Of a DNA stretch of 64,000 nucleotides, positions 2,182 through 64,000 are shown piece by piece. The notes beneath the pieces are model-generated. The model did not search any database. It saw only the letters and a program-made list of their open reading frames with translations, and was not told the origin of the DNA. The stretch comes from Marsupella aquatica (lineage: Eukaryota; Plantae; Marchantiophyta). The stretch is taken from NCBI GenBank assembly GCA_973895155.1, contig OZ316891.1, positions 28,587,145 to 28,651,144 on the forward strand, read 5' to 3'. The position numbers were made by a program, and so were the translations under genes. Every line of letters starts with the position of its first letter. Within the stretch, counting starts at the first letter, position 1.

Positions 2182-2406
2182 CGGACAGAATGTTGCTCCA
2201 AGAACACAACTCCCAAAACTCTACTCTCGATAATGACGCCAAAAACTTATCGGCGGTGGCCCTTTTATAGTGTCTGTTGAGGGGTTGGCCCACATGTCCA
2301 CTTTTGATTGGCTGTCACCCTAAACGAAAAAATAGCAGAAAAGGGTATATTTTCTTGGATTTCTAATTTCATTCTCACATGTGCATCGTGGCAAAATTAT
2401 ATAGTT

Positions 2407-2700: not shown

Positions 2701-3317
2701 CCGATGAACCGAAGGATCTTAGTATTGTCGACTAGTATTTTTGTCGCCCGTAGTTTTTGCGATAATTTTATCGGACTGCGCATTGCTGTTGAAAGAATGG
2801 CATGTTGACTATGGTCACTTGCGGAGGTAACTGGTCAATTGCGGAGGTAACTGCAAGGTAAGTTTGACGAACCGTGCAGTAATTCTTATCGACTGTGATG
2901 TAAAATATTTTTGGTAAATACCCAAAAACTGAGAAAACTGAGATTGGGTCAGAGCTTTCGTGGCTCAAATCCGGAGTGCGATACAATTATCGCACTTGGC
3001 TCGAAACATGGATATGGATTTATAGATAAGACCTTTCATATATCTTCGGAGAGCGTGAATATGAGGTTGAGGAGAAAGTTTTTCGGATCTAATTGTTCCT
3101 TGATAATATGAATGTTTGTTAGCATGAATTTCATTGGTTTTGATCATTATTAAATTTGTTGTTTCAATCCGAACTCCGATACGAATTACATTATTTCCCC
3201 AAAAACGTGTTTTTGATGAAAAAAACTGCCGATTTCGCGAGATTCAGCGGAAAATGAAAATACACTTCTCGTTTAGAGGAAATAGTTCTCGTTCGGTCCA
3301 AAATCGTGTTTTAAGCA

Positions 3318-4951
3318 TGTATTGCAAGCTATTCCTATCTATCATATGATGTTCCTCAAAAGCTCCAACTCTTTGGCTAAGACTTTGGTGGCTCTCTGCC
3401 ATGATTTCCTTTGGGGATATAATGAGAATGGTGGACGGAAAATTCCCCTGGTAGCGTGGAAGACGATGGCGCGGCCTAAGGTGGACGGTGGCCTTGGGTT
3501 TAAGGACTTTTGCAGTCACTCTGACGCTTTACTCTGTCAATGGTTCACCCGTGCTCTGGATTTGCAAGTCTCTGAATGGGCTAGGATTTTGGGGGAAAAT
3601 TTGAGATTGGCAAAATGGAGGAATGCTAAGCGCATCAGGAGAAATAGATACTCTCTCTCTGATCGACTATTGCTCTGTTACCCTCGTTCTTTTGGCTATC
3701 TCTTTTACACGGGTAGTTTGTGGAAGGCTTGGGAGTCTCTTCAGCTGCACCTTATACTCTCACCGGGCGGTTCTGGCGTGGCATGCTGGTGGAGCGTGGA
3801 GGATGTTGTGAGATGCCTGGAAGGTTTTCAGCACCTACAGGATGACATGATTTGCTCCATTATCAAGATGTGCGGGAGGATTGGAGTAAGGACGATGTCA
3901 GATTTAAATGGTTCTCATGACTCAGTTGTTCGAACCTTTTCTACTAAAATTGCAAGAATACGTGGTGCTGACACTGCAACGAGAGAGCTTTGTTTAGCAT
4001 TCGTGGACAAAATCAAAGGTACTGTGGATTGCTTTGGAGATCTCCAAGCTCGTGCCGCCCAATGGTGTTGGTCTGACAAACGTGAATGGCTGAAGAACTT
4101 CACCCTGTCCAATGCACGTATGTATCAGCTGATTCGACCCAAAGGCTCTAATTCTCTTAGGCTCAACAGGATTTGGAGCATTTCCTTTTCTGACCTCGAA
4201 TGGAACAAATTCTGGAATGCTCTATGGTCATCTGATTTACCGTTAAAAGGCCGCTTATTCCTTTGGAGAATAGTTGCTCAAGGGTTATTCACTGGAACAC
4301 GAGCTAGAAGGATTGGTAAAGGAGATGGAAACTGCCTACTGTGCACCAATGTTCTTGAAACAATTCCTCATCTTTTCTTCACATGTCCCTTCGCTAAAGA
4401 GGTGCTGGCAGCTGGCTGGGTGGACTTTTCCGGGAGCCACTTCTTGGAGACATTTGAATTTATTCTCTGTCTTGGAAGCCACTGGATGCACCAAATTTGA
4501 GAGAACCATTCGGGTCTTTGTGGTTTACCACGTGCTGTGGTCTCTCTAGCTGGCACGGAATGAGCAACTTTTTAATCGTGTCAACAGTAGAAGATTTAAT
4601 CTGAATCTACTCCTTTCAGATATGTTAGACTCCTTGCATGGCCTTTGTGAAGCCTCGGGTCCCAATAGTAAACATACTAGATTACTGCGAGTCAAAGAAT
4701 TAGTCCGTCAGGAACATCTTAGGTGGGTTACTCGTCCAGACGCATGGCTTTTTAGTTGAAGCAATACCTGTTTATGCATTCTACTTTAGTTGGATAGGAA
4801 CACTTCTTTGTGCCTTTGCACTTAGGTGCTCTTTATGGCCTCACCGGGGTCTCACTATGCTGCCCACACTTATGTTGCCCTGTTGGGTCCCCCTTCCCGT
4901 GGGTTTTCGCGGGTTTCTTTAAAAAAAAATTTAAAAAGAAAAGAAAAAAAA
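3318..4951 (+). mobile_element. 5'-truncated LINE (L1-like) retrotransposon: ORF2 C-terminus with zf-RVT, 3' UTR and A-rich tail
   Basis: ORF 3322-4500 has FLWG...LVAWKTMARPKVDGGLGFKD and LFLWR...CLLC...ETIPHLFFTCPFA (RT-associated zinc finger). Frameshifted continuation to ~4759; A-rich tail 4921-4951 abuts the truncated transposase. No TSD found; left boundary approximate. Confidence 0.88.
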
Positions 4952-6900
4952 GATGGCCATTTTGGAGAATCCTCCCCCCCAAATGCCTTCCGAAGATTGG
5001 TACCATAACCTGTGGGAAACCTCATCGACCCAATATGTCTGCGAAACTCAATGCGCTCTGCCCTTGTCAAAACCCAAGGAGGATGGATGCTAGGGGGAGC
5101 ACCAGGGGGGTCCAAAGATGGCCAAAAACCCAAAAGACCATGCATCCCCATCTCCTCACAACTTTCTCTCCAATTGTTATTTTTCTCCCCATATAGATGG
5201 CGAATCAATGATTTCCCCACATTCCCCTCAATGTGCATAGGGTCTAACAAGTGATTAATGGGCATATCTGACCAATATGGCAATTGTGACAATGCAGACA
5301 AACGGGTCATGCCACATCGGAATAATGGTAATGGATCACTCGGATCCTTAACTCTCCCCCATACCTCTCTCCAATATGCTGGATCCTTCCGCTGAGGTTG
5401 AGGACGAATATCAGGTTGGCCCTCATAAGTATCATAAAGGAATGGATCACTCCTCCAAGGATGGTCTGGCATGGTGGAAGATATTTAGTATGACCAATGT
5501 AAACAATTTTTTGCAGAGTACTTGACTTGGGCCTGGCCACCCCCTCCAAATCGGGTCCACATGTAGAGCAAGCTCGATAGCCTGATGTTTGCCATCCAGA
5601 AACATATCCAAACCCTGCCCAGTGCATAGAAAACACATTCATAAAATAAGGTTCATCAAGGCAAAAATCTACATAATTGCAATTAAATGCAAGGTTTAGG
5701 TACTAGAGGAAATAAGGGTTTACCATACCTGGTAAATCATGCATGGTCCACATAAGGATGGCCTTTAGAGTAAATGCGCGGGATAAACCTCCTGTGTTGT
5801 GACGTCCATCATAACAATCCACTCCTCTCCACAGTTGTATCAACTCATCAATCAATGGCTGCAAGTACACATCAATCTTTTTAACCTGCTTAGGACCCGG
5901 AATAATCATGGAGAGTAGTAGGTGACCTTTCTTCATGGCCATCCAAGGAGGGATGTTGTAGTTTGTCAACACTACTGGCCACACCAAATATGGTTTGGCT
6001 TTTCCTGCCAATGCAAAAGGGCTGATACCGTCTGCCGCCAAGCCTAGTCGAACATGTCGTGGGTCAATTTTGAACTCTCCCCATCTATCCTCTACAAATC
6101 AATTGGCAGGAGAATCAACCATCATCCGCATGGCACTAGAGGGTACAACCATATCAGAACAATTTTGTGAGTGCCATACCATCATCTCAGCCAACTCTGC
6201 ACATCGGAATTGATGTTGCAATCGAGGGATAAGAGGAAAGTACCTCATAACCTTTTGCGGTACCTTCCCCGTCAACATGTCATCACGGTACCGTGGCTTC
6301 TGACATTTAGGACATGTAGTCGCGTTTTCATGCTCACCCCTAAAAAGAATGCAATCATCCACACATGCATGTATCACCTCATACTTCAGGCCAATGGACT
6401 TCAACACCTGTTTAGCCTCTTTCCAAGAGGCTGGCATTGCGTTGCCTACTGGCAAAATACGATCATGTAAGGTACAAAAAACATCATCCAAAAGTAGATT
6501 GCTTGCCCCATGTCTTTGCTGCAAGTTGAGCAACAACATTATTGATGAGAGCCGAGATAACCTACTCCCCTCGAATATGCGAGTACGGGCATGACATTGC
6601 GCCTCCTCCCATTGCTTGTCTTGGGACCCCCTAGAAGGATGTGGATGACTAGTCCTTTCATGGGTTGAACCAATGTCCTCCAAACCAATGTCATCATGAT
6701 CATCATAGAATTGGTCCATGAGCTCATCCATGGCCCTCTCCTCATCAAGATGGTCTTGGATAGGATCATCACCATCATGTTGTACCCCATCCTCTTGCCT
6801 AAGTTGCGGTTCATGCCCACGGTTGGCCACCATGGCCTCAACAAGGTGTTGTCGCATAGCTCGTGATATTACCCCAATATCAGGCGTTACATATTGATTC
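4952..6900 (-). pseudogene. CACTA/En-Spm Tnp2 (Transposase_21-type) transposase, disrupted and truncated by the LINE
   Basis: Fragments 6099-6857, 5703-6041, 5307-5642, 4870-5472 contain IHACVDDCILFRG..CPKC, RYFPLIPRL, LAADGISPF, YNIPPW, IPGPK..IDVYLQPLIDEL, WTMHDLPG, LDPMHIEGNV; stops and frameshifts present. Confidence 0.92.
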
Positions 6901-7026: not shown

Positions 7027-7982
7027 TCATGGACGACAACGCAAGGAAAGTTTTGGTGCATCCCACTCATACTCACACAATAACTCCTCACCAGCTCTAA
7101 TGGTCCTTACAGCTACTGTCATGATATGGTCATCCATATGTTTCACAAAATATGGATGTCTAGGTGGACCAACATTTGAATCCACTCTACATTAGCCTCC
7201 AAACCTCTATCTCTACCTGTGGTACTATTGATGTACCCTGCTAAATTACCGTTCCGAATAGGGTCACCATCAATCATCCGGCAATGCCACGGCCTAGTGA
7301 AGACCTCATCCGGGTCTGAGTCCATCCTCAATGCATACACCCCCCAACTTGGGTGTTGACGCAACAAAATATTCCAACTCTTAGAGTTATATACAGCCCC
7401 AATGTAAGGAAAGAGGTGTTCTCCATCATAACCACGTGTCCATGGCTTTGGAGGGACCGCAATATCCTCCAAAGCAAAAAGACCATATCCTATATCAGGA
7501 CCAATAGAGGATGCCTTCACTATCCAAGGGCGACCCCATATCTGAACTGGTTCATCTGTAGGAATAAAATCTGGAAATTTGAAGAGACTTGGAGAAAAGT
7601 CCTTCAAAACTTCGGCAGCCCTACCAGTGAGATAGGATAGTCCAAACCTGCCCTCAATGCAAATATAATCTACATTGCCGGCTGGTCGATCACTAGTACC
7701 TAACACCTCCTCTCGACTGTGTACATGGTCCAGTGGTCCATACTGCCGTCTACGTCTACGAGATCGTGGTCGTGTACGTAGGACCCTAGTAGTCACAACC
7801 TCGGGCCGAGAGACCGGTTCCCCCTCTACATGCTCATGTGTGGGCACAGGAGTGGGGATAGGAGCAGGTGGGCTAAGAGGCATCTGGGCAGGAGGAACTG
7901 CAAGCAACTCCCTGGCCCTTGCTAGAAACCCTTCCAACCACACAGCTTCAGGAACCAAAGGAGCTGGGGGCCTACGAGGCAC
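7027..7982 (-). pseudogene. SET-domain protein (lysine methyltransferase-like) exon, one frameshift
   Basis: VKASSIGPDIGYGLFALEDI, PYIGAVY, YALRMD..IDGDPIRNGNLAGYINS..ANVEW in ORF 7143-7982; another frame (7140-7027) reads HIMTVAVRTIRAGEELLCEYEW, the canonical SET C-terminal motif. Confidence 0.85.
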
Positions 7983-8118
7983 CTATTTCAACACACGTAC
8001 AATGGTTTTACACAAATCAATAAATTAAGTAGTGGGATGTAAATGCAAGATAATTAAGCAATACCCTAAATTGGAATGCATATATGGAATGAATAGGGGA
8101 CATAAACATATCTGTACC

Positions 8119-8349
8119 TGGCTAGGAAAATACCCTGGCATATCACCCTCGTGGCGGCCATAGTTCTCGATGTGCTAACAAGTCTCCCACGCATGTCGAA
8201 CCACAAGTCCCTTACATCTCACACACCAGCAAGGTATGGGTCCTAGTGGAGCACGAGGACGATCTGGAGGAGGGGGTGGAGGAACCTCCCCCTCAGACGA
8301 GCTCGTGTCTGAGTCTGAATCTGACGTGGAACTATCAGAAGTAGACATC
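8119..8349 (-). pseudogene. Upstream exon with transposase-associated Cys/His motif
   Basis: IPCWCVRCKG...ETC*HIENYGRHEG parallels YCPCVNCKG...LHLIKHGR at the N-terminus of the 23093-25024 transposase; ends at a CAG|GT donor near 8118. Confidence 0.6.
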
Positions 8350-9201
8350 TGCATGCAGGAAGTACACTCATTCATGTAAGCTGCATAAAAGAAGACAAGT
8401 GTTGGAGTATCAAAATAGAATTAATTAATGCATGAGATACAAGAGTCCTGTTGTACCTCAATGATACTCGCGCTTTGCCAGCCTACTATGTCGTATTTTC
8501 TACACACAAGGTGTGGGACATCCAAAATCTCTGCATATATGGAGCATTTTGCTAATGAGCATACATAATGTGTAAGTGCGAAAGAGTGTAGGAAGAACAC
8601 ACCACATACAAAATGCCAACATACAAAAGTGTAAATGATGCGGCTCGTGAAGCGGGGACATCATACCTCCTGGATGCGCGGTCTCACACTATGCATAGTG
8701 CATTGTCCAAAACAAAACCTACCTACCCCCTCACAAACATCAAACCACCCCTCCAAACGCAAGGTACTGTGCATCAAATCCAACACAACCATTAGCCTAA
8801 TATATGGAGGTTGAACCTTATCCTAGCTAAGAAAAGGTGTAACCTTATCCTAGTAAACCCCATAACCCTAAACCCATAAACCCCTCGAAAGAAATGATCC
8901 AAATAGCTTTCACCCAGAAATGGTTTGTACAAAAACTTCTTGTAGTATTTTGTCTATCATATATCATAGTATTGAGTTTCGATCACCACAACCATCCCTA
9001 AACTTGCAAGAGGACATCATACCTCCTGGATGCACGTAACACTATCGTGACATGTCTTATCTCTGAAATGTTTTTGATAGCGTTGGGCGCTATTAATGAA
9101 AGGAATCACAAGTCAGACCCGTTCGGAGTTATTTTTACTTTTATTTCAACAAAGCTTGTTCAATTGATGTGCATTTTAATAGCGCCAGGCGCTATTTCTC
9201 T

Positions 9202-9455
9202 GACTTACGTCCCCACTTTACATGTCAACTCAGAGAGCCTCTCCCACTTATGTCCCCACTTTACATGTCATCTTGGAGAGCCTCTCCGACTTACGTCCCC
9301 ACTTTACATGTCAACTCGGAGAGCCTCTTCGACTTACGTCCCCACTTTACATGTCATCTCGGAGAGCCTCTCCGACTTACATCCCCACTTTACATGTCAT
9401 CTCGGAGAGCCTCTCCGACTTAAGTCCCCACTTTACATGTCAGAGTGGAGAGCTT
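9202..9455. repeat. 43-bp tandem array (about 6 units) containing the CTCGGAGAGCCTCTCCGA palindrome, between the divergent genes
   Basis: Units start at 9202, 9245, 9288, 9331, 9374, 9417. Confidence 0.92.
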
Positions 9456-10074
9456 ATCTGACATGGGGGCGTGACATATCTTGGAGACAATCTGGAACTT
9501 GAGACTGGCCTGACATGTCGTGCAAGTACTGAATATTTTTTGGAATTAAATCCAGTCATTCAACGATCATACTCATTAATACCAAGGAATGATAGGAAAT
9601 CTTATCTGGTCTGGAATCAATCGTACCAAGGACATTATGGCGTGAAGGGGTAGTAATAATGAAAGCATCTGTATAGGTACTTCAGTGTTGCGACTCTAAC
9701 ATGAGTCAAATCTAGGCATTCATCATTATCAGAGTACGACAACATATAAGCCAATAAACTGCTAACATGTCAACTTCCTCCCGTGGCCCCTACCACTTGT
9801 AATCAATGAGTGGTCCCATAGATCTCCCGTTGCTTGGATGGGACTCAACCTGCGTGACGGCGATAGTGAAGTCAGTTGTGATGCCCCTAGATCTTCCGTT
9901 GCCTAATAATGATGATGACTACTTTGGTGAGTCCCCGCCGTCTCTCGCCTTTCCTCATTTGAAAGGCGAGCAATTGAGGCCGAGCGAGTGCGAGTGCGGA
10001 TGCAATTTACCTCATATTTCTTGGAGAGCGTAAGTTGCTTTGTGATCTTTCCCTCTCCGCGCTCTGTGTGCTAT

Positions 10075-10465
10075 GAGCTGTGAGCTGTGGTGGTGCGAGT
10101 GCTGGAAGCAGTGCGATTGTGAGTGCGGTGCGATTGAGTGCGATTGTGAGTGCGAGTAGTTGTGCGGTGCGATTGAGTGCTGTGCAAGTGGTGCGATTGA
10201 GCTTGTTGCGACTGAGTTGTGGTGGTGCGAGTGCTGGAAGCGGTGCGATTGAGTGCGGTGAGCTGTGGCAGTCGAGTGCGAGTGCTGTGCGAGTGGTGCG
10301 ATTGAGTGTTGTGCCACTGCCAGTGATTGAGCTTGCTGCAACTGAGCTGTGGTGGTGCGAGTGCTGGAAGCGGTGTGATTGAGTGCGGTGAGCTGTGGCG
10401 GTGCGAGTGCGAGTGCTGTGCGAGCGGTGCGATTGAGCTTGCTGCGACTGAGCTGTGGGTGGTGC
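10075..10465. repeat. GT-rich degenerate short repeat tract (gtgcgattga / gtgcgagtgc) just upstream of the ParB-like ATG
   Basis: Repeated 10-30-mers directly visible; explains the three overlapping low-complexity minus-strand ORFs. Confidence 0.8.
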
Positions 10466-10517
10466 AAGTGTTGTGCAAGTTGCGCTCGTGCAATTCAGTA
10501 GGTGGTGAGATTTGAAA

Positions 10518-11191
10518 ATGATAGGGAAGAGGAAGCAACCCACTCCCTCTCCTTCATCGTCTGGTCGGCAGACCAGATCAAAGACAATAGAGAGCACCGC
10601 CAGTGGTCGGGAAACTCACACAGTGAAGAAGCTAGAGCCGAAGGTTCTGAACTTTGAAAATGTGTCTGCTGAACGTCTGAACAAAGGTGCATTCGAAGGG
10701 ATTGTTGGGGAGTACTTGCTTTCATTTGGAGCTGAACCAAGTGGGAAGCCCAGAGAGCCACCTCGGATTCCACTATGTCGTTTGATGACAATGGAGGCAG
10801 TTCGGACTCTCCAACAGAGCTCCATTCTGAAGATGAAGAAGGACTTCGTGAAGAATGGGTATGTGGACAAGTTTTTGGAATTCCACATATCAGAGACCAA
10901 TGCGCATAACGCCACCCACTCCATGTCTGAATTTTCCGCGGATTGGGACCCTCTATGGGAACAAGCTAACGCAAAATTTGAGATGGAGTGTGATGAGTAC
11001 GAGGAGTTTCACGTTTTGAAGGGTAAGATGTTTTGGGTGTTTGATGGAAATCATCGCCTGAATGCATGGAGACAAGTGGCTGAAGAGTATCCTGACGAGC
11101 AGAAGTACCACCCTTGCGTGAGATTCTCTCTTCTACAGCCTGGAAAACAAGAATTCAGGAAGATTGAGCAGGCAATGCACGGCCTCAACAC
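10518..11191 (+). CDS. Exon 1: ParB/Sulfiredoxin-like N-terminal domain
   Basis: IPLCRLMTMEAVRTLQQSSILKMKKDFVKNGY (box I-like) and FWVFDGNHRLNAWR (DGxHR / GxxRxxA signature); donor GTAAGT at 11192. Confidence 0.75.
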
Positions 11192-13365
11192 GTAAGTTTC
11201 CGCCCCCTTGGTTTTTGGTTGTTCTTGCATTTGTTGTTTTTTTGCACCCACATAGGCAATCCTATCTCAGAGAGGCTCTCCGAGATAGATACATACACAC
11301 ATACAATGTTTGGCTCTCAAAATGCTATCTTGGAGAGGCTCTCCAAGATAAACCTTCCCTTCTCGGAGAGCCTCTCCGAGATATCAATGCCTTCTTGGAG
11401 AGCGATGCCTTCTCAGAGAGCCTCTCCGAGATGTCCATGCCTTCTCGGAGAGCATCTCCAAGAGAGATGTAATTTTCAGGTATGAAGCCTTTGACGCCAA
11501 CATTTGTCGCTTCTTTATGCAGGATAAGCGCAAGCGTTGTGCAGACATCTTGGTTGACCGATGCAGACAGGGTGAAGAAGCTGTTGGAGGAGTATCAGAC
11601 ATTGCTTCATCCGGATGGTTATGCTAGATTCTTAGCAGCAAGAAGCCATGGGCATGGAAAGACATGGTATAGCAAGTGCATGACAAAGGATGCTGCTGTG
11701 TACATCATGTCGTGGAATAATATTGAAGACGGGAGGATTCGTCTTGCAAAGGAGATGGCAGCCGATGCTGCAATTGGCCATGCCTGGAGTTTGGATAAGT
11801 TCCAGAAGGAAACCGCACTCATGACGAGTGAAGCTTGTAGGTCTTGGGAGGGCAAAATGCAGAAGTTTGCTCAGATTGTCAATCCAGCAAATGGAGAGGA
11901 GTTTCTGGAGATTGCCGAGGAGCTGCACCAGTTGCAGAGTAAACAGAAAGATCGGCCACAAGTGCAAGTGGGGTTGGATCGAGTTAAATTGTTTGCAAGT
12001 GCGGTGATGCCTGCTGAGTGTCGAAACAAGTTACTCCGCATTCATTTCTCAACCGCGGAGGAGAAGAAGCGACACCACCATCCAGATGTATATGGTGATT
12101 CAACAGTGAGAGCTTGGTTGCTAGTGTGGTCAATGTGGTGTTACATTGCCCATGTTGGCAGTTTGATAATGTCAGAGTTTGCCGAGAGTGCATATGATTC
12201 TGGTGAGTGGCAGAACTTCAATGGAAGCAAAGACGAGTTTGTTGAGTTTCACAACAAGATGTACAAGCAATTTGTACAGACTCGGTCCTATGAGGAGGGC
12301 AGGAAGATGTGGAATCCAACAAAGCAAAGCAAAGATGTGTGGAGGAAGCGTGCAAAGAGGTGTGTGGTCAGATATTTACTTCATCAGGAGAGCATTGGAG
12401 CCTCTACTTTCAAAGTGTTACCAAGTGCTCTGACTGCATGGATGACGGAGAAAGGCCCGTTGTCAATGTATCCAACAGATGGGCTGAAGCCAGCAGCAAG
12501 AGTCTTTTCAGACTGGGAGAGACAAAATTGTCCATGGTTCACGGAGTTCAATGATTGGAATGAGTTCATTACGCCCGAAGAGAAGGAAGCTGCCAACCTC
12601 CTAAAGGAGGGGAAACTACCAGACAACCTTTTTGCACCTTCAAAGTTGGGAGATCTTGAGCTGTCGACAAAGGCTGCATTGGACTTGGAGGCCATTTTGC
12701 CTCTTGGAGAGCCAGAGTATGATGGGAAGAAGGTTCGGGGGAAGAAAGAAAAGGAATCAGAAGACACCACCTCAAAACAAGGCACTCTTGGTAAGGTTTA
12801 CACCCTAGCTTGCATTGTACATCTGACATATGTTTGAGAGCCTCTCCGAGATAGTATCATTGTAAAATGATAACTAAACTCCTTACTTTGTTCTGTAGAA
12901 AAAAGTAAAGAAAAGTTTGGAACCCCAGGGTCTACCTCAAGCAAACATCGTCCGATGGATGAGAAGATGGAGCCAAGAAAGACCGGGGACAATGGAGAGG
13001 AGGATGAGAAAGCGGTGAGTGGGGACAATGGAGAGGAGGATGAGAAAGCGGCGAGTGGGGACAATGGAGAGGAGGATGGGATGGCCACCGGGGACAATGC
13101 AGAGGGCCATGAGGAGGAGGAGGAGCCTGACCTTTCAACCCCAAGCGGGACCCCGAGTGGGACCCCAAGCAAACCACAAATCTCTGGTAAGCCAACCAGT
13201 CGGCCAAAGAAGAAAGCCGACAAGAGGATAGACGAACCCACAAAGAAGCCAGTTTCAACAGAAGCCCCATAAATTCCGGAGGATGATCTTTGCAAAATTC
13301 TTGGAGTACCTCGGCCCTCTCATGCTATTACATCTGCCCTGCGATTTTGCCATGCAAAAGAGCAT

Positions 13366-15195
13366 ATGACCTTACTAGAGTGTTCTTCTTGGCTGAAGGA
13401 CAAATATCAGCCAACCACGGGAAAGTTGCCTCTCCCTCCATTCATGAGGGAATTCCGGGACTGGTGTAAGAAATTGAAGTTGGCTGGCTTGCGAAAACAA
13501 GGTTGGATAGTTGATGGTGTACCTAAGGGCCATGGTTGTGATATGATCTTTGTTCAGCTAGGGACAGATTATCGCATAGCGCAAGCTGAAAATAATGTTC
13601 CGGTGTGGAATAGATTTCGGCTCAGTGACCTAGAAGTGGCGACGACATTGGCAGACTCTCTACTCACAAACGACGGTTTCCTGTGCATTGTGCACAGTGG
13701 TTCATTTGCCCACACAGGCTCAATCTTTGAGTACCTTCACATTGACTGGGCTGAGAAGTTGGATCACATTGACTCATTCACCATTTGGAATGACACACCT
13801 TGCTACATGGCGTCAAGCAAAAAAGCTGTAAGTTCACTTCAATTTTGGCATTTCAATAGAAGTAATCTCGGAGAGGCTCTCCGAGATAGTTGAAAAATGT
13901 GTCCGCAATTACGATGTCGGACACCCTCTCCCTTATGGGTAACATTGATCTCGGAGAGGCTCTCTGAGATAGGTAGGATCCATCTTGGAGAGCCTCTCTG
14001 AGATAGGTAGCATGGATCTCGGAGAGCCTCTCTGAGATAGGTAGGATCCATCTCGGAGAGCCTCTCTGAGATAGGTAGGATCCATCTCGGAGAGCCTCTC
14101 TGAGTTAGGTAGCATGGATCTCGGAGAGCCTCTCTGAGATAGGTAGGATCCATCTCGGAGAGCCTCTCTGAGTTAGGTAGCATGGATCACGGAGAGCCTC
14201 TCTGAGTTAGGTAGCATGGATCTCAGAGAGCCTCTCTGAGATAGGTAGGATCCATCTCGGAGAGCCTCTCTGAGATAGGTAGCATGGATCTCGGAGAGCC
14301 TCTCTGAGATAGGTAGGATCCATCTCGGAGAGCCTCTCTGAGATAGGTAGCATGGATCTAGGAGAGCCTCTCTGAGATAGGTAGGATCTCGGAGAGCCTA
14401 TCTGAGATAGGTAGCATGGATCTCAGAGAGCCTCTTTGAGATAGGTAGGATCCATCTTGGAGAGCCTCTCTGAGATAGGTAGCATGGATCTCGGAGAGCC
14501 TCTCTGAGATAGGTAGGATCCATCTCGGAGAGCCTCTCTAAGATCGGTAGCATGGATCTCGGAGAGCCTCTCTGAGATAGGTAGGATTTTTAGGGTTTAG
14601 AGAGGTAGGACCGATGTCGGATTAGTTTAGCAATTAGTGTTGCTAGTGTTGCTAACAAGTGCAAATCTATTTTGCATGATGTGACAAGCTCAATATCTGC
14701 ATTTGGATATATTCGCCATGAAGGGTACAAAGGTGACCCTCCCAAAGGTACATATGAAGCCAATTACTGGTGATTTGTGCCTAGGAAAGAGCAATGCTCT
14801 ATCCAATTTTACAAAGGAAGATGATGCAATGAGAGACGAATTGGCCGGAACCTTATCGCCTGCAACCTTGCAATGCATCATAGAGCACATCACCAGTCCC
14901 GGCGATATCATATTTTCTTGGAATGTCCACTTTGGTGCTATCTACAAAGCTGCCAATAATTGTGGGCGACTAGTATTTGGGATGGAAGCGCATGACTACT
15001 TTGGTGAGTCAGCAGCTTCGGTGGTGTCAAAACTCCTTTCAACACAGCAGGGCAATCAGACCAAGGCGGAGGGCAAGGAGAGTAAGAAGGAGGAGGCCAA
15101 GGAGACTAAGAAGCCTGAAGGGCGGAAGAAGCTTGTCCTTGAGTCTGATTCAGAGGAGGATGCCGCAGAAGGCAAGGGTGGGAATGCTCAGGATT
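13366..15195 (+). CDS. Beta-class N4/N6 DNA methyltransferase-like fold, split by the repeat-filled intron 13828-14687; catalytic motifs degenerate
   Basis: CDMIFVQLGTDY (position of DLIFTDPPY), DSLLTNDGFLCIV (RxLKPGGxxxI), then SPATLQCIIEHITSPGDIIFSWNVHFGAIYKAANNCGRLVFGMEAHDYF matching KPxxLxxxIxxxSxPGDxVLDPFxGSGTTxxAAxxxGRxxIGxE. Confidence 0.7.
13948..14578. repeat. Intronic 34-bp tandem array, 19 units of the 23-bp palindrome with two alternating 11-bp linkers
   Basis: atctcggagagcctctctgagat recurs every 34 bp (one 30-bp unit); linkers aggtaggatcc and aggtagcatgg mostly alternate; one extra copy at 13865. Confidence 0.95.
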
Positions 15196-15814
15196 GTGAG
15201 TAAACGTTGAATCCAAGAACCCATTTGTTGTTAGTTTGCAATTTACATTGTGCCATGGTGAGGATAAATAAAAATGTGAAGTTCCACATTATTATGGTAT
15301 TACCTTAAACTGTCTACTTAACCAATAGGCAGTTCACTACAGGAACATCGAGTCCGAACAATGGCACACATCGGACAAGGACAAAGTCCGTGAAGCATGG
15401 GAGGAAGCATCAAAAACTTTCTCTCCAGAAAGATTTTGCCTTCCAACTTACGCAAAAGGGATTGTTGATTCATGCCCCTTCAAACAGCTCAAGGGTGTAG
15501 CTGAGAAGTACACAAAGAGGCAAAAATCAAGATTTGTAGATGATAGAGCAGTAGAGGTAGACTACAATGAAAGTGAGAGTGTCAGCAGTGATAGTGATAA
15601 GATAGCTCACCCTTCTTTTGTGACCTATAGCTCAGATGAAGATGATGCCTAATGCCATGCTGTTCAATCCTATGCAGCACGTGGTGGGAATACCCAGATA
15701 CCTGGGTTATTTGCTGAAGTAGTCTGCTCTCAAGACTTTTCCGACATAGTATCCACATGTCTATCCAAAAAGCTCCCAGACAAGGAAGTACTATTCAACT
15801 TTGTAGATTACAAG

Positions 15815-16438
15815 TTGACCAGGGCGTCAATGAGATGCTTGTCTGAAGGAAGAATAGGAGCTCAATGGCTACATTCACATATCATCGATGCATACTTGGC
15901 CTTGTTGCAGTTTAGGGGGAGATCAAGAGGCTATCCAAAGTGTGCATTTTTCATCACAGCATTCTACACGTTGCTCTCAACGCCCGTATACTGTTTTGCC
16001 AATGTTGCTCGATGGACCAAAACAGAAAACATATTTGATTATGACGGGATATTGGTCCCTATCCACCAGGCAAACAGGGAGCATTGGGTGTTGGCAGTGA
16101 TTGATTTAACTGGAAAAGAGGTGTTGTTCCTAGATTCTCTTTGGGAGAAATCAGGAAACTTTTGGGAGGCTCGAAATGAGTATCTCATGTATACTCTAAC
16201 AAGGTATGTCGAGGATGAAGCAAGTCAAAGAGGCATGCCCTCACCAGATGCAAACAACTGGCCTAGAACTTTAGTGTCAGGCCTTCCATCACAAGAAGAT
16301 AGTGTAAATTGTGGGGTATTTATCCTTAACTATGCAGAGCGCATAGGTCGAGATGCTCCTATGGATTTTGATGGCAGCCATGTAGGAAACTTGTGAAAGA
16401 AGATTATTTATGACCTGTGCACATATCAGATAACATAA
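15815..16438 (+). CDS. Ulp1/SENP (peptidase C48) SUMO protease domain
   Basis: WLHSHIIDAYL, FFITAFY, VPIH..REHWVLAVID, FLDSL, QEDSVNCGVFIL: His-Asp-Cys triad and oxyanion Gln intact. TGA at 16394 interrupts L(R)KKIIYDL. Confidence 0.92.
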
Positions 16439-16680
16439 TAAAGTAGTGGCCAACAGGGGTTAGCTTTAGAGAAGGTAGCAATGATGAAGTGTTGCTGTGT
16501 ACACATTATAATATATATGAAAAGTGAATGTGATGTGTATCACTTGCAAATTTTTTGTATTTGTATGTCAGAGAGGCTCTTTGAGATGGTCTTAGAAATG
16601 GAATGGGAAAGTCAATGATGGTCTGCAAAGTGACTTGGTATCTCGGAGAGGCTCTCCGAGATGGTCAACAAAAAGACTTG

Positions 16681-17420
16681 CACTAGTAGAAAACAATGTA
16701 TTTTATGACCGAAACAATGACTATTAATCAGGTCTTTTTAACAAAACAATGACGCAATTGTTTTCGTCTTTCCAGACACGTCACAACGGACATTTTGGTC
16801 ACGGTCTTTTTGGACAAATGACGCTAAAAACATGTGGTCATTTCATACTATCCTAAATGACCGTTTTTATGATATGGTCATAAATGTTGAACGGTCCAAA
16901 ATGACGACACAAATCACCATCGACGGTCAATTGCCGTTGACCGTCGATGGTCCCCGTACCCAATCACACAATGACACGTGGCAATAAAAAAACAAATAAC
17001 ATTGGTCATTTTGGACTTGTCCAAAATGACGTACATTATATAACAAATCAAATAGTGACACATGGTTCAAAGAGGATTCACCATTTGGCAATATATTTGG
17101 GTCATTTTGGACGTGTCCAAAATGACTACAGTATAAACAAGTCATATTGAGACACGTGGTTCAATTGGGAGAAGACACGTAAAGATACACATTAGTCATT
17201 AATGACATGTCTTGAATGACATAAAGTGAGTCATAGTGGACTTGTTTATAATGACCATGAGAAAGGTCATTGTATATGTCATTCTTTGAATCATTTAGTC
17301 TATGTCTTTAATGACCAGAGTTGAGTCATATTGGTCACAAAGATAGTTGTGAATAATGACCATTACATCAGTCATTCTAGCCAGTCATTTAATCATTCAA
17401 GCCAGTCATTCAGACGAAGT
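16681..17420. repeat. CACTA subterminal region dense in (A)ATGAC/GTCAT motifs
   Basis: Dozens of ATGAC/GTCAT in both orientations; same motif density at 34480-35445 and 42265-43150. Confidence 0.8.
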
Positions 17421-17764
17421 ATTCAATGATTTGGAGAAATTCAAATTTAAGTGATCATGATAGATAAAACTTGATGTCAATCAAAAATCATACATTACAA
17501 AACCATTCAATAGAGTTGCTAAATGAAAACTTAAAGAAACATTCGATATATATCACAAATCCAATTGATATTCATACAAGATACCTTCATAAGTCTCATG
17601 GTAAATATTGAACTCAATGCAAATTTATGAAACAAAATTACATTGACATCAATAATATTAGATTGTCAATTGTTACAACCTGACATACCAATCACTCTGC
17701 ATGTTTATAGAAAAACAGAGTTGTCATTCTATCATGTCTATTGTTTCTTGATAGAGTGCTATTT

Positions 17765-20600
17765 CTATTGCTTCTTAAGCAATCTAGAGTTCCATAGGGC
17801 ATTCATCCCTTTCACATCAGATAATTTAGACTGGTTCTCCCCTGAATTGGCAAATGGCAATGCCACATCTACAAACACTTCAATCACACGCACTCGCAAG
17901 AAAGGGCTTTCAAAATCTGCACAATGAAACTTATCTTCTCCTGGCAGCCCTGTCACCTCACCTTCTGCCACTATCATGGAATTGTCCACAACGCTCTTCA
18001 TCTTCACCAAATCTCCTCTTGCAAACTGTGAACAACACATTTTGTTAAAAATGCAATAAACAGAAATTGAAAGATAGAAGAACACTCAAATCAAACACAC
18101 ATTTACCTTTGCAACGGGGTTAGGAGACTGCATTGGTTTCTTCTGTGCAGGTGATGCATTTGCTGAGGATCCTTTCTTCCTTTTCTTCTTTCCCTTTCTA
18201 GTTGATGGAGTGTCATCCTGTTCACTTGGAATGGGAGTTTCTTTTGGCAACTCAGATGATTCTGGGGTTACATCTGGTGTCAACTGAGTCGACTTATCCT
18301 CTGGCAACTGAAAGGCATCTGAAATGGCTTCTTTGGGCAACTTAGATGGCAAAAGGTTCACTTCCAATTCAGTTTGCTTTAGAGTACTGTTAGCTGTGTC
18401 AGTTGGTCTTCCCTGCGACACAGGAGGCTCCCCTAAAGATGCTGTCATAAAACACACACAAAAGAAATGCATAAACAAACATGTATACACCAGCAACATA
18501 TAATCACACTAAAAACATGCAAGAACATTATAAACATGCAATGACATATACACATCACAATAATTACATTGAATGGACAGTGTATACATGATAGAGAATT
18601 TTACCTTCATTATCGCCTGAAAAAGTAAGAGATCGCTTTCTACTACCTTGTTTGGTAGTTGTAGTCAACTTACTGTGACTAGGCACAACTGTTGGAACTT
18701 GTGCATTACTGGGGTGATGTGCCATCCATGTAGTCATCATGTTTGTCAACTCCCTCACAGTGCCTTTCAACTCAGCGACATCCAATTTCACAGCCCCAAT
18801 GGCAGTGATCTCTTCTTTTGAATGTGGGGTCTGTAAATGAACCACAAACCAACACAACAGTCTCACTGTCAAACTTACAAACGACACAACACTGGCTCTG
18901 TCAAATGGAGAATGATGTACAAATCAAATTGGTATGACAATACTCACAGCTGATCCATGTCTGTTTCCTTGCCCCAGTAAGCTAGCACTTTTACCCTCCC
19001 CACTTGCCAATGATGGGCTCACCTTTGCTCCCACAAAACTACCAGTCTGACCTTCTGCACTTGCCAATGATGGGCTCATTGTCACCTTTGGCAATGAACC
19101 CTGACTACCATGGTTTTCTTTCAGGTCAGATATACCTGGGCTTGATCCTCTCTTCTGCTTCTGTTCAAACACACAATGAATGAGAAATCATAGAGTTTGT
19201 TTTCATCAAGATTCACAAACAAGACATAATTGATAGTGAAAATGATAGACAATTTACCATTCTCTTTGCTGCTGCAGCATGCCCTCCCCTTCCAAAGTGA
19301 GAGGTATCTTGCACTCGTGCTCTTTTATCAGTCATCTGTTTACTCAAAGATATCAATGTTGGACTGGTAAAATGAGATACCAAAGCTGCCCATTTCTTTG
19401 GATCAACACCAGATGGCCCAGGTTTGGTTGGATCCTCATTGCAAACTTTCTTCCAATAAACATGCATTTTATGGCGCTCTCTCTTCAATATGCCACGACA
19501 ATGACTCTGGAATTTGGTGTTAATAAATTCCCCACCCACATACTCCCACTCAGCTGCCATGTTATTCCACACTGTGGTTGTATGAACTTGTGGATGATCA
19601 GTCCATTTTGGCTTTGATACATCAAAGACTCTGAGTACGTTGCCACGAAGTTCCTCCAGCCAGTATTGTTTGTTGCCATCAGAATCATCAATATCATTGT
19701 CATAAATCTGCATTTCACAGACAATGTCAGATCATAACTCTGGAATTTATGCAGAGTCCAGGTTTTATACACACAACAACAGAGAGGATCAGATTTGTCT
19801 AAATCTACAAACAAGTACAATACTCACTTTAATGTGTTTGGGCACCTCTCCGCAATCCCTTCGTTGTTTGGCAGTATTATCAAACTGCTTCTTAGCATGC
19901 CTTCGTTCCCTGCGCATCTCAGAGGCCCCTCCTGCAATGCACACACATGCATTCAATCAAAAAATATGTACATGATTGAAAAGTTGAGCAAATGTACTTG
20001 CATATGCATGACGAGCAGATTGTGTATTACCTGAAGATCCTCTGGAATGTAGTACATCAGATTGACCTGATCTACCTTCAGATGCTGATGGAACCACTAA
20101 ACAAACACACAACACCAAAGCACTTCAATTAATTTCATTTCAAAGTAGAATATCAACTTCCAAACACACCTGAAAAGTAGAACAGTACAATCCACTCACT
20201 TTCATATAAGAGTCCAGTGTCTGGGTCTTTCCAACATCTCACTAGCCCACCTCCACCAGGCCCAGTCTTCTTAGGACCACGATTTTGTTTCTGTACCTAC
20301 ATCATGGACAACGTAAGCATATCAACATATAATTTGAAAAAGGGACAAGGATCCCTTCCTATTAGGATGATGAAGTTCAAGCATTACCTGTTGTGCACTC
20401 TCTGGTTCTGACCCTCCAATGTCAGAATCCTCAGTGTCATACTCAGAAGGAGAACCATAGCCATCATCACCAAACTCTGCCATGTTCACCTTGGTAACTT
20501 CTGATAGTCTAGAGCTCCTCCTCTTTGGCAATGTTTCAGTTGAAGTACCTTTCACCAAAGCAGGCTTTCCTCTCTCTCGTTGTACATGTGTGGTTGGGCC
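17765..20600 (-). CDS. Multi-exon TnpA/Ptta-like second CACTA gene (copy 1); exon limits approximate
   Basis: ORF pieces 19213-19713 (PGPSGVDPKKWAALVSHF..SHFGRGG) and 17765-18085 (IVAEGEV..FHCAD..RVRVIEV..LPF) resemble the En/Spm Ptta and Tnp1 C-terminal domains; GT-AG bounded exons downstream of the transposase. Confidence 0.72.
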
Positions 20601-21030
20601 TCTAAGGAACAAAGCAATCATCAACATACACCAATGCAGATCAAACATACATGCAAAATGAATCTACAACACCGTAACACTAGTACTTATGTACAGGATC
20701 CATACTAGTATGAGACCAATCTGGAATATGAAAACAGAACATGAACCTGACAACTCCATCTACTGAATCAAATTTGCAATAGACATATCAACACACACAT
20801 CAGCTTGCAGTCTGGCCCCAGTCCTAGATCACGCATAATTCTGACATTATGCTCTATGTTCCGATTTCGGGCCTCCTCATAAGGATTCACAGAATGTGAC
20901 AACCCTTGCAATCTTCCTTTCACAGGCTGCATTCACCAACTGCACAAATGGGTAAACCATTAGTCTGATTTCATAAATAGTCCATACATGTAGTCCATCT
21001 ATGGACTTCACACACCTAGCTAAAACCTAT

Positions 21031-24000
21031 TCACTGCTTAGGCCTGCCCTTTCTTGCAGATCCCTCTGCATCTCTGCCTCGTTTGGGACCAGTACTTGGT
21101 CCTGGATTTTCTCTGGACCTACATGCCTTAGCCAATTCGATGTGTAATTTGGCATTGTTTTCCATTGTAGCATGGAAATCAACGTCTGTGTAATCACCTA
21201 ACACCCTTGTGGACCTGGATTCTTTGTGGAGGATTGTTCTCCATGCTATCCCCTTCTCATTGGGGTGGAAGAAAACCTGCTCCACTTGCTTTGGGAAAAC
21301 GTAATCCATTTTCTTGGACACACCCAGTTCTCTATGGAAATTCACCTGGCAAAGACCAGACTTGGTATACCTCATACTGGCTGAGGATTTAGGAGTCCAT
21401 GATGGATCTGCCCATTTCCCTTTGAAAAGAATCACCTCTTTCCTCAAGCTGCCATAATTCAGTACCAAGATATCTGTCAAGGCCCCTACATACTGTACAG
21501 ATTCTTCTATGGTTGCACCAGACCTGTCCACTCGCTTCTCAGTGAATGTAGAAGCCATCCCAGAATCAAAAGTGCTGAAAGCACCAGAATCACAATCACT
21601 CAAACACCCCAAGGATGGAATAGTCCTCCAATGGTGCCCATAGGCTCTACATGCCCTATACAGTCGTGCCTTCAAACTAGGTGGTGTGGAGTATGCAGAT
21701 AGTAATGACCGCTCAGACTCTTTCTCAAAATTATGGGTATTGACTAATGTTTGAAACCATTCCCTGAAAGGTGGCAATTCTTGGCAGTCTACAGGAAATT
21801 CCACTGGTTTTCTTCGATTGGCAGGCTTCCTCATCCACTCCTTCCGGAAATCCACTCTTCGTTTGGTAACAGTCTCATTGGTAGCATCATATATCCTGCA
21901 TGGCAACAACAACACTGAAGACATTAGTGCACGATCCACCATGAATATACAAACACAATGGGGCAACATAATTATGATCCATATGCCTAAGGATAGGAGA
22001 GTTTCTAGGGTTTATGTACCTGTACCATGGAGCCACTGTCTCTTCATTCTCTAATATATAATGATGCATGGCCATCATTTCAGACCAATCCAAAGTTATC
22101 GCCTTTGCAGCCCCTTCCAAAACAATGCCTGCAACGCCAGCATCCTCCTCCAACTCCCAGGTTCGTTTTCCCTCTCCCTTTGCATCAATCATGTATTCAG
22201 AAAGAAATCCCAAAGACTCATCTAATACATAGCCTTCAGCCATAGAAGCCTCTGGACGTGCCTTGTTTCGTACATAACCCTTCAATACCTTCAGGTTCCT
22301 CTCTATTGGGTACATCCATCTGCCTGTAACTGGGCCACACAAGTCTAATTCCTCCACTAGGTGAATCATTAAATGGGTCATGACATCAAAGAAGCTTGGT
22401 GGAAAATGGATTTCCAAAATGCAGAGAGTGAATGCAACATCCATCATCAAATTCTCATACATTGAAGGGTCCCACACCTTCGTACAGATCTGGCGATAGA
22501 TATTGCTCACCCCAGCTATGGCCAAGCGAACCCCTTCATCAAGTAATCCCATTGTTGCCAGAGGGAGAATCTGTTGCATGAGTTGGTGGAAATCATGTGA
22601 TTTCAACCCAGAGAGTTTCTTGGATTTTGTAACACACTTTGCCAAAGAACTTGAAAAACCAGTGGGCCCTTTCAAGGTCAATAAAACCTCCAAGAACCTT
22701 GTTCTTTCCTTCTTGCTCAGGCAATATGGGGCTGGGGGCATCAACAATTTGTCATCCTTACGCTTGGGAGCTGGATTGGGTACAAGCCATAGGTGTTGGC
22801 GCACCTGTAAGAGCTTCATGTCTTCTCTCACAGAAGGAGTGTCCTTGGTCCCAATGATAGTGTGCACAATGTTGTGTGCAAGATTCTTCTCACAGTGCAT
22901 GGGATCTAGACAATGGTTAATGAGTAGTTTCTGCAGTGGACACACAATTCAGAAATTAGGGCATTGAATACAACTTTTGGCATCACTGGGCAGTAGTTTG
23001 TGCAGTGGACACAATTCAGAAATTAGTGCATTGAATACAACAATTACAAAATCTGGGCTACAGGAAGTATATGAAGAGAATATATTTCAAAGTCATATGA
23101 AGAGATTGCAGAAATTCATTGTAGTAGTATGGAGTCTTACATTCCAATAGGGCAACTTGTACAGACCAGTAGCCCTCTTCACTCCATGCACCTTTATGGG
23201 GCATTTCTCATCCTCAACCTTGGTTCCTCCCTTCTTCAAATATTCTGTTGTCTCGTCTCCCCACTTCTTTCTATCAGAGCTTGTCATTCTACACGGTGCA
23301 GGTCGACTCTCAATTGCACCATCAAAGTATTGTGCACTATCTGGTCTACGAAAAAGATGCCTTGCTGCTAACCATCGACGGTGGCCACTGTACTCTAATT
23401 TCTGCAAGTGCTTAGAACCACGTGCCACACATTCTGGCCCACAGATGACACATCCTTTGTATCCAGAGTGTTGTTGTCCAGATATTAAACCATATGCAGG
23501 GTAATCATTGATTGTCCACAATAGCACAGCCCTAAGGTTGAAGTGTTGAGACAATCCTGGGCGTGGCAATTTGTCAAAGCAGGGCACTCCTTTCTTCCAC
23601 AACAGCTCCAACTCCTCATAGAATGGGCCCAATATTATGTCTAGTTGTTCCTCTGTTACTGAATCAGGTCCTGGAATCAGCATAGCTAGCATGACAAAGA
23701 ACTTCTTGGTGGTAAGCCAAGGAGGTAAATTGTAATTCAACAACAGTATTGGCCAGGTAGACCAAGCTGTGGAATTATTCCCAAAGGGATTCACCCCATC
23801 AAGTGCCAACCCAAATCGCACATTCCTTGGTTCAGCTGCAAATTCCCGATCAATATTTGTATCCACATGCTTCCAAGCCTTTGAATCTGCTGCGTGCCGA
23901 ACCATGTTGTCTGTGCTTCTATTCTCATGATGCCAAGTCATGAGTTTAGATGTACCAGCAGTGGCATACAATCTCTTCAACCTGGGAATTATAGGGAAAT

Positions 24001-25024
24001 ACCGCACTACCTTCCTTGCCTGTAATGAATTCCCCACTCTCTTCATCTTGGGCTGCTGACACATTGAACAGTTTTCTAACTTGGCATTCTCACCCCTAAA
24101 GAGCATACAACCTTTCTCACAGACAGGGATTCTCTCATAATCCAAGCCAAGCTTTCTCAATAGCTGCTTTGCAGCATATAAGTTCTTGGGCAGATTATGC
24201 TCTGTAGGCATACCATGCTCCCCCATCAAAGACAACAATGCATTCACTCCTTTGTTTGAGAATCCATGGCCATGACAGATGTTCAGCAGAAGCAACATGA
24301 ATGACACAACATCTATTTTGCTGCCTGGGAACAAAGGTTGCATTGCTGCATCTAAAGATAACTGTGCAGGATCAGTCTCCACAGGAGTTTTGGAGGTTTC
24401 AAGGGGGTTTACAGGATGGGCACCTCCTTCACTCTCATCATCCCCAAGTACAAAATCCAAGTCAAAACGGTCCTGATCATCTAGCTCATGCTCAGGGGAT
24501 TCTTCACTGGTTCTCAGCAACGTTTCTTCCAGTAGAGCCCTGATATGTTCTTCGACATCTATAGTTGGATGTTCTTGAACATCCACAGTTGGATACTCTG
24601 GAACATCCACAGTTGGATACTCTGGAACATCTACAAATAAATGTTCTTCAACATCTACAGTTGGCTGTTGTGCACAGGTTGCCTGCTGAAGGTTTGCTAC
24701 CCTCAATGCCTCAGGGCCATGTTGTGACATGTAGTCAGCACCCCACTCTTCATCAGAAGAGTCCTGTCCCTCTCCCACCCACACTTGACATGCAGGGTAC
24801 CGACCATGTTTAATAAGGTGCAGTCTAGCAGTATTCCGATTAGTCCTATAATTCCCTTTGCAGTTCACACAAGGGCAGTACATCTTATGGTCCCCACTCT
24901 TGTGGCAGGCCTTCTGTTCTCGAACCCACAAAGCATCATCACGATGTTGTACTCTAGCTGGATGGAAGAGCGGCAACTTTGGAGTTCTACCCACACCTAA
25001 CGTATTCTGTGGCAATTGTGCCAT
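21031..25024 (-). CDS. CACTA TnpD/Tnp2 transposase, 3 exons (Transposase_21 + DUF4218 + DUF4216-like), apparently intact
   Basis: ORFs 23093-25024 (CPCVNC, LALDGVNPF, YNLPPW, WTINDYPAYG), 21887-22945 (LDPMHCEKN, GLKSHDFH, FPPSFFDVMTHL, RWMYPIER) and 21031-21969 (YVGALTDI, LFKGKW, YVFPKQVEQVFF). Confidence 0.95.
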
Positions 25025-25624
25025 GCTAGCTTGATTGAAATTGTATTCAAACTATGATTTTCAAACTGAATCAGAGTGACATGCATACAAAATTGGGCCT
25101 ACCGTCACAGTTGTACAACCGATGCCAACCACAGTCCAATTGCTCAAACCCACAGAGCCCAGTTTCTCAAATCCACTGTAGTAGGGCACCTTCTCCTTCT
25201 TGCATACAAATAGAGCATCACATACAGTGTCATCAGAATGATACTATGAACGTAAATCTCTGTGCCTTCATCATTTCCAGTATTTGTTTGCCTATTAGGA
25301 ATGTGAGCAGACAGGTCTGGAATAAGTAACGTTTGTGACACCAGTGACAAATTTACAAGTGAAGTTTAGACATCAATATGGAGGAAAGTCACACTCAAAG
25401 CACATGCTTGAAAATCGGAATCCTACCCTGGAAAAGATAATAAAGTTGATTTCTCAAAATTAATTGCCTCAATCCGCAATGCACTGTCGTAGAGTGTGTA
25501 TACATGAGGAGTTCATCAAACTGCATATAAATAGTCCACATGTTTTAGCACTCTGAAAATTGTTTAAGTCCACGTGAAACCATCAAAAAGCTCTATCTCA
25601 AGTTTGTGTTCCATCCAGCCTCAA

Positions 25625-34490: not shown

Positions 34491-34573
34491 TCTACAATTA
34501 TGATAGGTGTCTGGAATGACTATTGAGTATTTTAATCTTCATATCTCTTGGGTTCTTTAATGACTCTATAAGT

Positions 34574-63993: not shown

Positions 63994-64000
63994 AAATAGC

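Follow-up and report, generated by a model that had tools for sequence, protein, structure and literature searches.

The pairing of a ParB-like domain with a DNA methyltransferase in a transposon-borne protein is already known from the alga Ectocarpus, in which the element Sola1-1_Ec32 encodes, opposite its transposase, a 1,104-amino-acid protein with ParB-like and N4C/N6A methyltransferase domains; this protein has been suggested to bind the element that encodes it and to modify it (PMC12477816). In Bostrychia, Plavaka elements of the EnSpm/CACTA type carry PAG2, an N6 methylase combined with a SET domain, and PAG3, a ParB-like domain combined with a 2OG oxygenase and adjoined by inverted-repeat arrays (bioRxiv 10.1101/2025.02.11.637652). 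Grapevine and rice CACTA-ULP elements carry a Ulp1/C48 domain and are reported with Tnp2 (PMC2528002), and VANC anti-silencing proteins bind tandem motifs in introns and non-coding regions of Arabidopsis VANDAL elements (PMC5735166). ParB–helix-turn-helix fusions are mentioned for chlorophyte and chytrid Dam-type enzymes of a different clade (Iyer et al. 2016, PMC4738411), and active N4-methylcytosine (4mC) enzymes occur in Marchantia (bioRxiv 10.1101/2021.02.12.428880). Here we analysed a 64,000-nucleotide stretch of the liverwort Marsupella aquatica (GCA_973895155.1, contig OZ316891.1, forward-strand positions 28,587,145–28,651,144), referred to below as the window and numbered from its first letter, in which positions 10518–16438 contain a broken gene predicted to join ParB-like and methyltransferase-like domains (the ParB gene), followed by a Ulp1 protease frame.

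The locus resembles Sola1-1_Ec32 in placing both domains in one similar-sized protein transcribed opposite a transposase, and differs from the published description in lying in a land plant, in its Tnp2/CACTA-type neighbour, in lacking the catalytic methyltransferase motif and in the Ulp1 exon downstream. With Bostrychia Plavaka, as reported, it has in common a likely EnSpm setting, parts of the ParB-like, PF01555-like and SET types, and tandem inverted repeats next to the ParB gene, whereas here the ParB-like domain and the methyltransferase fold are joined in one predicted protein, SET belongs to a separate, broken gene, Ulp1 is present and no oxygenase was seen. Unlike in the reported CACTA-ULP arrangement, Ulp1 here follows a ParB–methyltransferase gene and is encoded opposite to the transposase. 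VANC offers a works-like analogy only; it belongs to a Mutator-type element and its activity has been demonstrated, whereas activity here is proposed by analogy. Neither a land-plant ParB–methyltransferase transposon gene nor a Ulp1-joined form was found in the literature searched, although the Ectocarpus and Bostrychia supplements could list cases. Our best explanation of the locus, held with moderate confidence, is that it encoded a CACTA/EnSpm accessory protein, composed of a ParB-like domain and a likely non-catalytic methyltransferase fold, that bound the element's own palindromes against silencing.

Decayed member of a spliced gene family

Five predicted exons (10518–11191, 11523–12790, 12899–13827, 14688–15195 and 15333–16438) splice in frame into 1,494 codons, bearing out an earlier preliminary description of the window that had proposed one spliced frame of about 1,490 codons. 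Three internal stops interrupt this frame, at codons 772 (TAA 13270), 1233 (TAA 15650) and 1481 (TGA 16394). With the second of these taken as the probable end of the protein, its parts are as follows.

10518–11191, plus strand: exon 1, a disordered basic N-terminus followed by a ParB/Srx-like domain (AlphaFold2 (AF2) model, motifs)
11523–12790, plus strand: exon 2, a conserved, mostly helical region of about 420 amino acids, the query for the 74 relatives described below
12899–13827, plus strand: exon 3, an acidic linker (36-bp repeat), the premature TAA 13270 and the N-terminal half of a methyltransferase-like domain
14688–15195, plus strand: exon 4, the C-terminal half of the methyltransferase-like domain, behind a CAA acceptor
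15333–15652, plus strand: exon 5, a conserved terminal tail (LPxYA ... FVDD ... SSDEDDA) ending at TAA 15650
15678–16438, plus strand: Ulp1/C48 protease frame, which is probably an exon of its own and follows candidate acceptor 15677 (Pfam, SENP alignment, phase)

All four intron donors are GT and three of the four acceptors are AG; the acceptor of intron 3 reads CAA (14685–14687) instead of CAG, a lesion absent from the preliminary description. The junction at this intron, 13827/14688, is fixed because a Riccia-only protein profile continues from one window frame into the other, matching the frame at 13273 with profile positions 5–153 and the frame at 14685 with positions 156–255 (E = 4e-13 and 1.5e-11, respectively, among 1,999 window frames). 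Junction 11191/11523 is covered by one Calypogeia protein (56% identity over model amino acids 171–331), and for junctions 12790/12899 and 15195/15333 the evidence consists of the splice signals, the reading frame and the spacing as a whole. The CAA acceptor, TAA 13270 and TGA 16394 are each one transition away from working sequence and the CpG observed/expected ratio of this DNA is 0.36–0.57, from which we conclude that this copy is dead. Window self-BLAST revealed no second copy of the exons within the 64 kb. Degenerate GT-rich repeats with units of 12 to 130 bp lie directly 5′ of the start codon (10081–10479).

Relatives of the gene were found in other liverworts. A search with exon 2 among 1.84 billion representatives returned 74 relatives at E ≤ 0.001, and those with an organism name (sources were looked up for 20 of the 74) came from Riccia sorocarpa or Calypogeia fissa. 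The Riccia protein P0077 is colinear with model amino acids 57–1102 at 26% identity, and all 28 matches to it were themselves R. sorocarpa proteins. Exon-2 and P0077 matches spread over at least eight scaffolds, in keeping with the multi-copy family anticipated earlier; the window contains one decayed member of this family of spliced plant genes. No algal source appeared among the relatives whose source was traced. The 113 proteins fetched for comparison were mostly fragments or automated models from the 26%-identical branch. One candidate relative, P0070, was rejected as a chance match and excluded from the alignments. A comparison of exon 2 with longer proteins gave no matches among 4,671 candidates, in a weak search that missed the Riccia proteins too; none of five window open reading frames had an exact match in the protein collection; and 75 pattern matches in a metagenome scan reduced to a single locus of 1,053 nt, too short for linkage.

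Predicted ParB/Srx-like and methyltransferase-like folds

The exon-1 domain (model amino acids 47–224), modelled in AF2 with 33 homologues, had a predicted local distance difference test (pLDDT) score of 83. Foldseek returned Srx, ParB and Noc as the top rows (best E = 0.023), and the best VIA match was KorB (Z 6.7, root-mean-square deviation (rmsd) 3.1, 92 residues aligned), with PadC also matched; VIA gave 13 rows at Z ≥ 2, and by their titles and family membership we take 12 of them to be ParB/Srx-type proteins. In an alignment of 43 homologues, DGNHR (window 11043–11057) was kept in 21 of 25 ungapped rows and MHNLN (MHGLN in the window, 11175–11189) in 26 of 28. DGNHR and the distal Asn match the GxxR-type nucleotide-binding motif of ParB/Srx, and these best-conserved residues fall at the position of the nucleotide site in ParB. 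Exon 1 is thus predicted to encode a ParB/Srx fold, and the ParB/Srx DGNHR domain named in the preliminary description was recovered by motif and by predicted structure, with modest scores. The Pfam ParBc and N6_N4_Mtase matches that had been expected were not seen at E ≤ 1 on any piece of the gene; ParBc was equally unmatched for the homologues, and neither exon 1 nor P0077 nor the SET-like frame described below gave a significant result in single-sequence searches of the PDB.

Helices follow the ParB-like domain in a model of the Riccia homologue P0103, in which the structural matches to this part were weak, short and helical. The exon-2 region is helical in the same model, matches no Pfam family and has Atlas scores all below 0.9. 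The protein resembles KorB, ParB/Spo0J, Noc, PadC and sulfiredoxin in its predicted N-terminal fold, its GxxR-type motif and the palindromic sites nearby, and differs from these ParB/Srx proteins in its long helical middle region and in the lack of an identified helix-turn-helix; nucleotide binding by it is putative.

The fold of the second domain was modelled on P0103, and the window pieces are tied to the methyltransferase family through the Riccia-only profile. P0103 amino acids 790–1070 matched MboIIA, M.BceJIV and CcrM (Z 17, rmsd 3.3–3.4, 208–220 residues aligned), Foldseek matched the P0103 model to CcrM (E = 4.4e-9) and the family profile matched M1.HpyAVI (E = 1.5e-4). The model has a permuted Rossmann order, with motif IV ahead of motif I. 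These predictions support the beta-class amino-methyltransferase fold claimed earlier, here on a homologue, and together with the exon-1 model they support a single protein in which a ParB-like domain is fused to an amino-methyltransferase-like one. The domain has its predicted fold and motif order in common with CcrM, M.MboIIA, M.BceJIV, M.PvuII, M1.HpyAVI and rotifer N4CMT, but is only 12–17% identical to beta-class amino-methyltransferases, lacks [DNS]PP[YFW] and has an altered motif I. Compared with phages by tblastn, P0078 returned 48 weak records; of the 15 listed, the best had E = 0.01 and 14 carried a DNA methyltransferase annotation, a consistent result that names no donor.

Catalytic capacity appears to have been lost. 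The catalytic [DNS]PP[YFW] was present in none of the 113 fetched proteins, none of the 26 aligned homologues and not in the window copy. At the motif IV position, which was set from the strand end at P0103 amino acid 862 and the expected spacing and not from a residue-level structural alignment, 23 of 26 rows read D-x-P-[TSI] and the window reads QLGT (13555–13566). At motif I, 11 of 12 Riccia rows have a DFxGxWG-like sequence (for example, DFAGGWG), a partial match to the FxGxG S-adenosylmethionine (SAM)-binding motif, and the window has SWNVHFG (14916–14936). Calypogeia P0004 reads SVGT at motif IV, indicating that the loss of this motif predates the decay of the window copy. We considered the alternative that the domain is an active, rebuilt writer of 4mC or N6-methyladenine (6mA) that marks its own element, as proposed for the algal proteins. 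The retention of the whole beta-class fold, the common D-x-P, the glycine-rich motif I of Riccia, homologue scores of up to 26.2 bits for Pfam N6_N4_Mtase (cut-off 26.7) and the working enzymes of Marchantia would all fit such a writer, but the aromatic residue that closes motif IV is missing from all 26 rows and the altered residues in both the window and Calypogeia point the other way, making an active writer quite unlikely. From its sequence, the methyltransferase fold is likely inactive.

The Ulp1 frame and the end of the protein

In a Pfam search of 18 window frames, the last frame of the locus matched Peptidase_C48 (E = 3.4e-23, 83.1 bits against a cut-off of 20.7); it also matched SENP2 (E = 1.3e-24) and had an Atlas score of 0.95. 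His 16082, Asp 16133, Gln 16292 and Cys 16310 all align with the catalytic residues of SENP1/2, confirming the intact triad reported previously. The frame is a Ulp1 domain with a complete triad and oxyanion Gln, for which a SUMO-cleaving role is predicted; the premature TGA 16394 sits 14 codons ahead of its likely end.

TAA 15650 is probably the natural stop of the ParB gene, because seven Riccia paralogues end in a tail matching the stretch before it. A profile of these C-termini, which were chosen for their resemblance to the window tail, ranked frame 15329–15649 first among 1,999 (E = 4e-4; next, 4.3). The seven paralogues have tails of the LPxYA ... F[VI]D[DE] ... SSDEE kind and stop 17–32 residues past the middle motif, in several cases with SSDEE itself, and the window tail ends in SSDEDDA-stop 39 residues past the equivalent motif. 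Eleven proteins reach past the last methyltransferase motif, of which four end in the tail, six at an exon-4-like acidic end and one is cut short. In the preliminary description the three parts formed one frame by read-through of TAA 15650, with the stop as a mutation. This was not supported: homologues end there, and none of the 113 fetched proteins, mostly fragments, matches the Ulp1 frame (best E = 0.69). A single constitutive three-part protein, in which TAA 15650 arose by mutation of CAA and the tail would lead directly into Ulp1, is consistent with the shared frame of tail and Ulp1, with a TAA one C-to-T step from CAA (as for the other three lesions), with the lack of an AT-rich 3′ untranslated stretch after 15652 (55% AT, compared with 63% after 16438) and with the roughly 26% identity of the Riccia proteins, which leaves room for this lineage to differ. 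Set against the hand-picked paralogue ends, the absence of Ulp1 from the relatives and a good splice acceptor directly behind the stop, we judge it improbable.

The acceptor in question, CAG 15677, is preceded by a pyrimidine tract and, 25 nt upstream, by a CTAAT branch-like site that overlaps TAA 15650. Sites fitting a strict acceptor pattern numbered 21 in 128 kb (both strands), or about 0.004 expected per 80 nt in one phase. Acceptor 15677 is in phase 1, matching donors 12791, 15196 and 15573, and splicing to it from 15196 or 15573 would produce frames of 1,380 or 1,460 codons, stop codons included, that are open except for two premature stops. Given these signals, an in-frame alternative splice to acceptor 15677 may join the Ulp1 frame to the gene in some transcripts, a candidate isoform that we rate as close to an even call. 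Two findings weigh against it: the acceptor criteria were picked after 15677 had been seen and recover one-third of the AG acceptors of the gene, and Ulp1 is missing from the relatives, as noted above. A separate Ulp1 homologue search found none among 217 candidates, at an over-strict cut-off of 1e-20.

Alternatively, Ulp1 may be separate or passenger cargo, either an independent gene whose first exon was not seen or an exon that was captured and never joined, in which case the element would carry ParB–methyltransferase, SET-like and Ulp1 genes side by side, like the algal EnSpm cassettes. The absence of the fusion from all 113 homologues and the ends of the 11 proteins that reach past the last methyltransferase motif argue for separate cargo, as do published reports of ULP domains in five grapevine CACTA families (PMC2528002) and of three separate accessory genes in Bostrychia elements. 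Its difficulty is the short distance involved: SENP similarity begins only about 80 nt 3′ of TAA 15650, the first in-frame ATG of the Ulp1 frame, at 15830, already lies within the stretch aligned with SENP1/2, and the ATGs nearest to the two GT[AG]AG donors in 15200–15650 lead into the wrong phase for acceptor 15677. We regard separate cargo as a real possibility, somewhat short of even.

Palindrome arrays and a proposed accessory role

A 23-bp palindrome, ATCTCGGAGAG[C/G]CTCTCCGAGAT, occurs in 35 copies in the window (≤4 mismatches), 32 of which lie inside 9270–16662. None falls in a coding exon, and none was found in 30 shuffles. The copies are arranged as follows.

9197–9442: upstream 43-bp tandem array, 4 palindrome copies
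11264–11464: intron 1, 5 palindrome copies
12830–12852: intron 2, 1 palindrome copy
13865–14584: intron 3, 20 palindrome copies, 19 within a 34-bp tandem array
16565–16662: 3′ of Ulp1, 2 palindrome copies, where the array is interrupted by a nested element
35468–35757: continuation of the array past the nested element, with three 23-bp copies (35473–35612) and three 22-bp variants

These arrays, absent from the preliminary description, strengthen the case for a self-targeting accessory role. By analogy with the systems described above, the gene likely served a CACTA/EnSpm transposon in an accessory capacity, and its product was most likely a self-addressed chromatin factor. DGNHR and MHNLN would form a nucleotide pocket that gates loading of a dimer on the palindrome, as for ParB on parS, with dimer binding suggested by the palindromic site itself. 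The methyltransferase fold would hold on to DNA, shield it or provide a scaffold instead of writing 4mC or 6mA. Palindrome binding would keep the element open against host silencing, and the main product would stop at TAA 15650 (1,232 amino acids). Should the Ulp1 frame be an additional exon of this transcription unit, alternative splicing would bring a deSUMOylase to the element. We infer clamp action, palindrome binding and anti-silencing by analogy. The most elaborate form of this proposal, a self-address system in the manner of bacterial parS/ParB, with a nucleotide-gated ParB clamp on the intronic palindromes, in which splicing switches between a dead-methyltransferase form and a Ulp1-tipped form that strips SUMO from silencing factors, seems to us rather unlikely. 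The accessory factor envisaged in the preliminary description accordingly survives in part, with self-targeting the likeliest function and deSUMOylase delivery retained only as a candidate splice isoform.

The likely link to a CACTA/EnSpm element is a transposase gene further upstream.

4870–6899, minus strand: Tnp2-type (CACTA/EnSpm) transposase, broken, divergent from the ParB gene (Transposase_21 E = 1.7e-38 at 5706–6098)

This transposase lies 3.6 kb upstream of the ParB gene and, by its position, likely belongs to the same host element. The earlier claim that the gene is transposon-borne is supported as far as a nearby Tnp2 transposase goes; the ends of the host element were not found in the window. 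A candidate right end lies near 35757, where a purine run (35739–35757) ending GGGGGGTG follows the last palindrome. Missing termini and target duplication would also be expected if the gene belonged to a repeat-associated host family scattered among unrelated elements, but the dozens of fragmentary paralogues across Riccia scaffolds, the divergent Tnp2 and the algal precedent make a host family very improbable.

Several points weigh against the accessory-protein explanation. The exon-1 model had no Foldseek row at E ≤ 0.001 and its best VIA Z score is modest; after the ParB-like domain, no helix-turn-helix could be recognised. Riccia proteins retain both the acid and the proline of motif IV, along with a motif I of the DFxGxWG type, so residual activity is possible there. 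The linkage of the ParB gene to Tnp2 rests on position, and neither host element termini and target duplication nor a partner for the candidate right end was found in the window. Nineteen of the palindromes form one tandem array and hence are not independent, and the palindromes could instead be subterminal sites for the transposase or a TnpA-type protein.

Neighbouring genes and repeats

The remaining features near the ParB gene are a second broken gene and a separate element.

7030–8345, minus strand: SET-domain-like gene, frameshifted near 7190 and located between the left Tnp2 gene and the ParB gene
16681–35467, minus strand: nested CACTA element inside the palindrome array, separate from the ParB gene (CACTAG termini, TTG target duplication)

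The SET-like gene scored below the Pfam SET cut-off (E = 0.0014, 19.5 bits against 22.4, at 7030–7191), and N-terminal SET-like motifs can be made out in it by eye. It echoes the SET part of the algal Plavaka cassettes. The nested element spans 18.8 kb and contains Tnp2 at 21000–25051 (Transposase_21 E = 3.7e-66 at 23096–25051) and an NSD-type PHD-finger frame at 25625–26296 (E = 4e-7).

An inverted second copy of the interior of the nested element is present in the window (17758–27941 and 53791–64000, 98.6% identical over 10.2 kb), and, taken with 30275–34103/43517–47353 and 38121–42244, it gives the right part of the window the appearance of one large, imperfect palindrome. Arrays of a unit of about 580 bp occur at 30500–34300 in the nested element and at 43150–46900 in the mirror copy. 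Long coiled-coil frames, in three related copies with retroelement-like flanks, lie at 38395–41981 and 48991–52668. On the left, a zf-RVT frame (3286–4500, plus strand, E = 1.5e-15), the 3′ end of a non-LTR (long terminal repeat) retroelement, adjoins the left Tnp2 breakpoint, and 661–2220 (minus strand) holds two long frames that by eye are of transposon type, the first without a Pfam family.

Implications

This locus extends the algal ParB–methyltransferase accessory class to land plants, in a dead copy. With its catalytic motif lost, the domain may have turned from a writer of marks into a binding or scaffolding module, and the 23-bp palindrome provides a concrete candidate target, making the idea of self-binding directly testable. 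Without a Ulp1 isoform, the locus would be one more dead copy of the ParB–methyltransferase family. If the isoform is real, targeted delivery would be a mechanism that could explain why so many transposons carry SUMO proteases.

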